A DNA stretch of 64,000 nucleotides, from assembly GCA_035708865.1 (NCBI GenBank), contig DASTFF010000026.1, positions 46,176 to 110,175 of the forward strand, in the 5' to 3' direction. Positions 52,451-52,671 of the stretch are shown here, in pieces. Both the position numbers and the translations under genes were made by a program. The notes beneath the pieces are model-generated. The model had not been told where the DNA came from. It ran no database searches and saw only the letters and a program-made list of their open reading frames with translations. The stretch's first letter is position 1. Each line of letters begins with the position of its first letter. This DNA is from Gemmatimonadota bacterium. Its GTDB lineage: Bacteria > Gemmatimonadota > Gemmatimonadetes > JACCXV01 > JAHWKZ01.

Positions 52451-52671
52451 CGCCTCCGCAGCTCCGCGAGGACGTCATCGAACTCGGGAAACTCGCCGGT
52501 CCGCTTCTTGGAGTGGATCAGATCTCCGTCCACGTGAATCTCGAACACGCCGCCACCGCTGGGGATCAGCTCGACCTCGGCGGAGGGAATCTCACTCTCG
52601 ATGAGGGCGGCCAGACTGGTCGCCCGCGGCTCGTAGTTTCAAGCGGTGCAGTATTCGATCGTGACGTTCAT
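52447..52671 (-). CDS. SelW/SelT/SelH (Rdx) family selenoprotein; in-frame TGA read as Sec
   Basis: Not in the ORF track. ATG 52671 has AGGAGG 11 nt upstream. Translation: MNVTIEYCTAUNYEPRATSLAALIESEIPSAEVELIPSGGGVFEIHVDGDLIHSKKRTGEFPEFDDVLAELRRR. The TGA at 52641-52639 sits in the CxxU/CxxC redox motif. IEYC, RA, LIPSGGGVFEI, VDG and FPE match bacterial Rdx proteins. High GC3 continues past the TGA. Confidence 0.8.
52605..52625 (-). promoter_or_regulatory. candidate bacterial SECIS hairpin
   Basis: RNA GGGCGaCC-AGUCU-GGcCGCCC gives 7 bp with one A.C mismatch. It starts 13 nt after the UGA, and the apical loop contains GU. Confidence 0.5.

Follow-up and report, generated by a model that had tools for sequence, protein, structure and literature searches.

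The DNA analysed, called the window throughout, is a 64,000-nt stretch of contig DASTFF010000026.1 (contig positions 46,176 to 110,175) from an uncultured Gemmatimonadota MAG of 1.3 Mb, 75% complete and with 70.4% GC. On its minus strand an ORF opens with ATG at 52671–52669, runs through nine sense codons to an in-frame TGA at 52641–52639, which is thus preceded by M-N-V-T-I-E-Y-C-T-A, and continues for 63 further sense codons before ending at a TGA stop (52449–52447). Translated with the internal TGA as selenocysteine, the ORF gives a 74-aa product in which the UGA supplies the U of a CxxU motif (C8-T-A-U11) near the N-terminus. This product scores 82.1 bits against Pfam Rdx PF10262 (cut-off 22.6), covering profile positions 1–73 of 74, as well as 70.5 against TIGR02174 CXXU_selWTH (cut-off 34.2) and 91.2 against NF041051 (cut-off 88). 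Judged by these profile scores together with the CxxU motif, the predicted product belongs to a known family, the SelT/SelW/SelH (Rdx) selenoproteins. SelW-like proteins are a long-known and abundant family of bacterial selenoproteins (PMC2398784), with few or no Cys homologues (PMC1794560).

Just 3′ of the UGA lies a small hairpin. In the numbering used here the U of UGA is position 1; the stem pairs positions 17–24 with 30–37, the loop occupies 25–29, and a mismatch, A22.C32, interrupts the helix. The features of the locus are as follows.

52447–52671, minus strand: SelT/SelW/SelH (Rdx) selenoprotein gene, 74 codons, translated with TGA=U.
52683–52688, minus strand: putative Shine-Dalgarno sequence AGGAGG, 11 nt upstream of the ATG, read from the sequence.
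52639–52641, minus strand: in-frame UGA, predicted to be read as selenocysteine and aligned with an in-frame TGA in 152/152 orthologues.
52626–52638, minus strand: spacer AACUACGAGCCGC, 13 nt, positions 4–16, unpaired in the consensus.
52618–52625, minus strand: 5′ arm GGGCGACC, positions 17–24, of which 19–24 form the conserved core; A22 faces C32.
52613–52617, minus strand: apical loop A25-G26-U27-C28-U29 (AGUCU), fitting N1-G-[G/U]-N-N2.
52605–52612, minus strand: 3′ arm GGCCGCCC, positions 30–37.

The stem therefore comprises eight positions, seven Watson–Crick pairs and the one A.C mismatch at 22/32, with a conserved core of six pairs (19–24 with 30–35). The first loop base lies 21 nt from the UGA, and the hairpin spans codons +6 to +12 after it. 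A25 and U29 are able to pair, which would leave a GUC triloop. The hairpin had been proposed in an earlier note, made from the window's sequence, as a SECIS-like element of 7 bp with one A.C mismatch and a 5-nt loop starting about 21 nt after the UGA; its coordinates, sequence and geometry proved exact when the minus strand was read again.

Public gene calls for SelW-like relatives are wrong in two ways: P0003, P0004, P0006 and P0008 are C-terminal fragments of 40–55 aa that start past the UGA, and the full-length entries P0005 and P0007 have W at the Sec position, that is, the TGA has been translated as Trp.

The selenoprotein gene is flanked by a gene for an 83-aa MerR-like protein and by one for a pyridine-nucleotide-disulphide oxidoreductase, giving the order MerR-like, SelW-like, flavoprotein reductase (window 51254–52945, minus strand). 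Among the 28 loci of the window's GTDB family, MerR was present in 27 and the reductase in 23; in families f2, f3 and f7 the loci lacked the three-gene order. This distribution suggests that the set may be a lineage-specific redox module. In the downstream oxidoreductase (window 52441–52480, minus strand; Pyr_redox_2, 187 bits), the FAD-binding GxGxxG motif precedes the first ATG, GTG or TTG of the frame. Translation of that frame from CTG at 52450–52448, which overlaps the selenoprotein stop as CTGA, gives a Pfam match from residue 7.

The genome holds a full selenocysteine machinery, each component scoring above its curated cut-off: SelA (453 bits), SelB (330 bits, with the winged helix PF09107 SelB-wing_3 at its C-terminus), a tRNA-Sec with anticodon UCA (71 bits), and SelD, which is encoded in the window itself.

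4111–5034, minus strand: selD (selenophosphate synthetase), TIGR00476, 384.8 bits (cut-off 125); the coordinates are those of contig C26, 50286–51209, minus 46175.

This selD lies approximately 47 kb from the selenoprotein gene and has no internal stop, and is therefore not itself a Sec-containing SelD. TGA is the commonest stop codon in the genome, ending 380/575 (66%) of the long high-GC3 ORFs over which the tally was made. Since UGA is normally a stop in this organism, selenocysteine decoding must be site-specific and locally directed.

A hairpin in such a place could arise as a by-product of coding, the RNA itself being functionless: the peptide R-A-T-S-L-A-A comes from an Ala/Gly/Leu-rich stretch at 70% GC, and GCN and GGN codons are self-complementary. 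Its stability would fit that explanation. Folded with RNAfold, the 60 nt after the UGA reach an MFE of −17.3 kcal/mol, unremarkable against dinucleotide shuffles (z = −0.63), and among synonymous recodings of the peptide 11.5% give a 19-nt core that is no less stable; stability alone is thus not exceptional for an Ala-rich coding stretch at 70% GC. Moreover, G19, C20 and U29 are fixed by conserved Ala and Leu residues. The fold suggested as a check in the earlier note thus shows no excess of stability over shuffles, and the same is true of E. coli fdhF: its validated SECIS (taken from NC_000913.3) gives z = +0.09. A second hairpin of the same genome, in the gene for FdhA (described below), also fails, with z = −0.55. 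Because even the validated fdhF element is not significant, comparison of RNAfold energies with shuffles cannot discriminate, and shuffle z-scores are unsuitable for accepting or rejecting bacterial SECIS candidates.

The combination of stem and loop is far rarer than stability of this order, which tells against a by-product of coding. When the genome was screened for an N1-G-[G/U]-N-N2 loop lying 16–37 nt after a TGA, 200/23,466 TGA trinucleotides (0.85%) carried an equally good stem and loop motif, and of 200,000 synonymous recodings sampled according to the codon usage of the genome, only 0.21% reproduced it as well. The earlier note had named a SECIS search no better than its controls as grounds for refutation; this site fits the published bacterial model, and few of the controls match it. 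A scan of window positions 52300–52900 against Rfam, counting matches at E≤10, returned no SECIS family, but five chance-level matches (11.6–16.5 bits, against gathering thresholds of 40–66). A covariance model from which the window's own family had been left out found the SelW-like site as its sole match (55.9 bits, E = 2e-13), the runners-up scoring 11.2 bits in the window and 14.8 bits genome-wide. Such a match is expected for a homologous coding segment and is not independent evidence of structure. Applied to the whole genome, the model misses the FdhA SECIS; it is not a general SECIS detector, because family-specific coding sequence dominates it.

Orthologues of the selenoprotein gene were found in 32/35 genomes of the window's order, and in 229/401 sampled genomes of the class and 247/401 of the phylum (one unpublished genome, G363, adds a single count to each of the latter two tallies; none of its sequence was used). 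Every listed match of the order, class and phylum searches has the in-frame TGA. Detailed comparison covered 152 loci, 72 of them from these matches and 80 from further related loci in MAGs labelled Clostridia, Spartobacteria, Acidobacteriota/Blastocatellia, Poribacteria, Desulfovibrionaceae, Desulfocapsa, Krumholzibacteriota, Planctomycetota, Brocadiaceae and Verrucomicrobia, among others, so that the orthologues span Gemmatimonadota and about eight other phyla. All 152 have the TGA at the same codon and the hairpin at an identical offset, with a spacing of 21 nt, and the absence of indels from the 17 codons after the TGA makes the alignment gapless. A Cys-form orthologue, sought as a negative control, was found neither among the 152 loci nor among the listed matches nor in a protein search, which returned nothing but the C-terminal fragments and the two W-bearing entries described above; the scarcity of Cys homologues given in PMC1794560 agrees with this. 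Pairs and sites were tallied on the 146 distinct 60-mers, as follows.

Pairs 20–34 and 24–30: invariant C-G.
Pair 19–35: G-C in 95%.
Pair 23–31: C-G 127, U.G 15, U-A 4.
Pair 21–33: C-G 93, G-C 42, U-A 4, A-U 4, unpaired 2 (99% paired).
Pair 22–32: G-C 52, U-A 9, A-U 2, A.C 72, U.C 11.
G26: invariant, 146/146.
Position 27: U 136, G 10.
Positions 25/29: A-U or G.U in 146/146.

Compensatory changes, with both sides altered, occurred at four pairs. The most telling against a coding by-product is pair 21–33: both positions are third codon positions (Ala GCN on the 5′ side; Ala, Glu, Val or Thr on the 3′ side), and its occurrence in all four Watson–Crick types is therefore synonymous, purely RNA-level covariation. 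At pair 22–32 the amino acids themselves co-vary in ways that preserve pairing, Ser UCC occurring with Glu GAG and Thr ACC with Val GUG. At pair 21–33, a poorly supported 66-residue FastTree gene tree, built without the hairpin-encoded residues, gives 14–17 Watson–Crick state changes, and taxonomy alone gives at least five independent compensatory events.

In the alignment of 72 sequences, 89.7% of cells were paired compared with 78.4% in shuffles, and 47 cells showed changes on both sides compared with 16.6, neither value being reached in any of 500 shuffles, although the orthologues are mutually related and these statistics overstate their independence. When the 3′ partners were slid out of register, pairing fell to 20–56%. 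An alignment of 58 sequences without the window's own family gave the same result for both pairing and covariation. The earlier note had looked to homologues that keep the TGA for conservation and covariation of the hairpin, and both are there.

Selection is also evident at synonymous sites outside the covarying pairs. The third position of the Pro codon in the spacer is free (CCG 60, CCC 47, CCA 25, CCU 12). The loop codon, by contrast, is AGU in 108, GGU in 28 and AGG in 10 of the 146 distinct sequences, and never AGC or GGC. In the genome AGU makes up 1.3% of Ser codons, GGU 7% of Gly codons and UUG 2.8% of Leu codons (the codon table was drawn from high-GC3 ORFs, in which rare codons may be slightly under-counted), so the loop of the window's copy uses the rarest Ser codon. 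C24 and G30 never vary, though the genome often uses ACG (42% of Thr codons) and CUC (44% of Leu codons). Covariation at synonymous sites has already largely refuted the idea that the hairpin is a by-product of coding, and we consider it very improbable.

The hairpin fits the published model of bacterial SECIS elements. That model (bSECIS) specifies an apical loop of 3–9 nt on an upper stem of 4–16 bp, a G within the first two positions of the loop, mostly in the pattern N1-G-[G|U]-N-N2, whose N1 and N2 pair, a distance of 16–37 nt from UGA to loop, and an MFE of at most −7.5 kcal/mol (PMC13188914). The hairpin falls within all four constraints, with a 5-nt loop on a 7-bp stem, the loop sequence N1-G-U-N-N2, a distance of 21 nt, and an MFE of −8.1 kcal/mol for the 19-nt core or −11.4 for the 21-nt hairpin; on the 19-nt core, 139/146 orthologues pass the energy threshold. 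In no essential respect does it differ from the bSECIS model or from the SECIS elements predicted for SelW-like genes of bacteria; a frequent A.C mismatch at 22–32 is a family-specific detail.

That mismatch, which in the window lies mid-stem, three pairs below the loop, is the state in which the pair most often occurs in the family. A22.C32 or U22.C32 occurs in 57% of the 146 distinct SelW-like SECIS sequences, across several phyla, and A.C recurs in the low-GC Desulfovibrionaceae. Its distribution among these sequences suggests that the mismatch is at least tolerated. In raw counts an extra basal pair, 18–36, is found in 78/83 sequences with the mismatch compared with 33/63 without it, a comparison for which a test on independent pairs was underpowered, with only two supported pairs. 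In the fdhF SECIS of E. coli, a bulged U17 on the 5′ side of the helix is reportedly needed by SelB. It is conceivable, but in our judgement doubtful, that the irregularity at 22–32 is functional as a counterpart of this bulge. More broadly, the SECIS can be seen to dictate protein evolution, since residues +7 and +10 after Sec co-vary (Ser with Glu, Thr with Val) in keeping the RNA pair.

The element resembles that of E. coli fdhF in several further respects. Both are coding-sequence hairpins just 3′ of a Sec-UGA, with a small loop exposing G-U (GGU-CUG in fdhF, AGU-CUG here) and an A-U pair able to close it; in each the helix is irregular on its 5′ side, a few pairs down from the loop (the U17 bulge and A22.C32, respectively), and, as described above, neither is more stable than its shuffles. 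The fdhF loop had been given in the earlier note as GGUC, correctly so in the sequence fetched under NC_000913.3. The differences are that G-U lies at 26–27 rather than 23–24, one codon further from the UGA; that the loop is of 5 nt (or a GUC triloop) rather than a GGUC tetraloop; that a 1×1 A.C mismatch takes the place of a bulged U; and that the host is a 74-aa thiol-oxidoreductase-like protein rather than a molybdoenzyme. A conserved lower helix extending to the UGA, such as fdhF has, was considered and rejected for the SelW-like hairpin: RNAalifold shows the apical hairpin only, and the outer pairs of the MFE structure are unconserved.

A parallel exists within the same genome. When every TGA of the genome was screened for the hairpin pattern of the SelW-like site, with the added requirement of an open high-GC3 frame to either side, the gene for a formate dehydrogenase alpha subunit was recovered, whose in-frame TGA falls in an ARI-U-HS motif.

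Contig C29, Sec-TGA at 3516, plus strand: FdhA selenoprotein gene, TIGR01553 944 bits (cut-off 814), NF041513 1495 bits (cut-off 1400).

Its hairpin (L168:717-776) has a perfect 7-bp stem and the loop GGUCU, 18 nt after the Sec-UGA, with G23 and U24 in register with E. coli fdhF. Like the SelW-like hairpin it is a GC-rich stem inside coding sequence, and its loop is also that of 28 SelW-like orthologues; unlike it, the FdhA element has a spacing of 18 rather than 21 nt and no mismatch. The two would share one SelB reader, and the FdhA GGUCU hairpin supports the view that this organism's SelB would read G-U in such loops.

A candidate third selenoprotein was seen in an OsmC-like ORF (contig C13, TGA at 6748, minus strand; L169:174-692; Pfam OsmC, 45.9 bits). 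The in-frame TGA of this ORF stands in A-A-G-U-M-L-G-T, and a hairpin with the loop UGGAG follows 25 nt further on; its match to NF041052, ‘OsmC-related (seleno)protein’, is weak (20.6 bits).

SECIS elements of eukaryotic SelW, SelT and SelH serve homologous Rdx-family selenoproteins and the same recoding purpose. They are located in the 3′ UTR and are built on a kink-turn GA quartet with an AAR loop; their readers are SBP2 and eEFSec (PMC13188914). The SelW-like hairpin described here, unlike these, lies in the coding region and is structurally unrelated to them.

A structure under selection need not be one that SelB binds, and the hairpin might instead act in ribosome pausing, in mRNA stability or as a SelB-independent stimulator of stop read-through. 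The hairpin is small, SelB binding is argued by analogy, and both the A.C mismatch and the placement of G26/U27, compared with G23/U24 in fdhF, depart from the E. coli paradigm. Set against this, 152/152 copies stand at a fixed distance from a UGA aligned with the Sec of a known selenoprotein family, the loop is an exact fit to N1-G-[G/U]-N-N2, the genome encodes SelB at full length, including the winged helix that binds SECIS elements, and its FdhA gene has a Sec-UGA followed by a hairpin with nearly the same loop. We accordingly give a functional structure of some kind other than a SECIS very little chance.

Almost certainly wrong is a third explanation, by which translation really ends at the UGA or the gene is defective, the downstream frame is untranslated and the hairpin is irrelevant to decoding: TGA is indeed the genome's main stop codon, and gene callers do miss such genes or shorten them to C-terminal fragments of 40–55 aa, but the idea is already refuted by conservation of the downstream frame, the 63 codons past the UGA being conserved as protein across many phyla and completing the Rdx domain, while a TGA conserved in 152/152 loci is incompatible with a pseudogene and the Sec machinery is present.

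It is the comparative evidence, beyond the rarity of the stem and loop motif, that settles the matter in favour of a SECIS, and the hairpin at 52605–52625 (minus strand) is very probably the bacterial SECIS of a SelW-like (Rdx, CxxU) selenoprotein mRNA. The reading offered in the earlier note is thus upheld by conservation, by covariation and by the fit to the bSECIS model. How the element would work is inferred from the paradigm of E. coli and Moorella, and this applies to the binding of SelB, to what G26 and U27 do and to the insertion of Sec itself. As a ribosome nears the UGA at 52641–52639, SelB would bind the hairpin ahead of it through its C-terminal winged-helix domain, G26 and U27 being presented in the apical loop. 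Sec-tRNA-Sec (anticodon UCA), made by SelA using selenophosphate from SelD, would be brought as a complex with SelB.GTP, and SelB, tethered to the mRNA, would deliver Sec to the UGA in the A site in competition with release factor 2. The result would be a 74-aa protein with a Cys8-x-x-Sec11 redox centre, as opposed to a stop after 10 residues.

SECIS hairpins in coding regions are an established mechanism, and the finding leaves knowledge of Sec decoding unchanged. The selenoproteome papers that were searched contain no mention of Gemmatimonadota in this connection. The element is a textbook case of an RNA structure acting on the coding sequence that contains it: synonymous sites are constrained, the genome's rarest Ser codon is imposed and two amino-acid positions are coupled. 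It also has value for annotation: the gene is invisible to ordinary ORF finders, and the pairing of UGA with SECIS restores a complete redox protein. Recognition of the two together marks this Gemmatimonadota lineage, in whose order the SelW-like gene is near-universal, as a selenium user.
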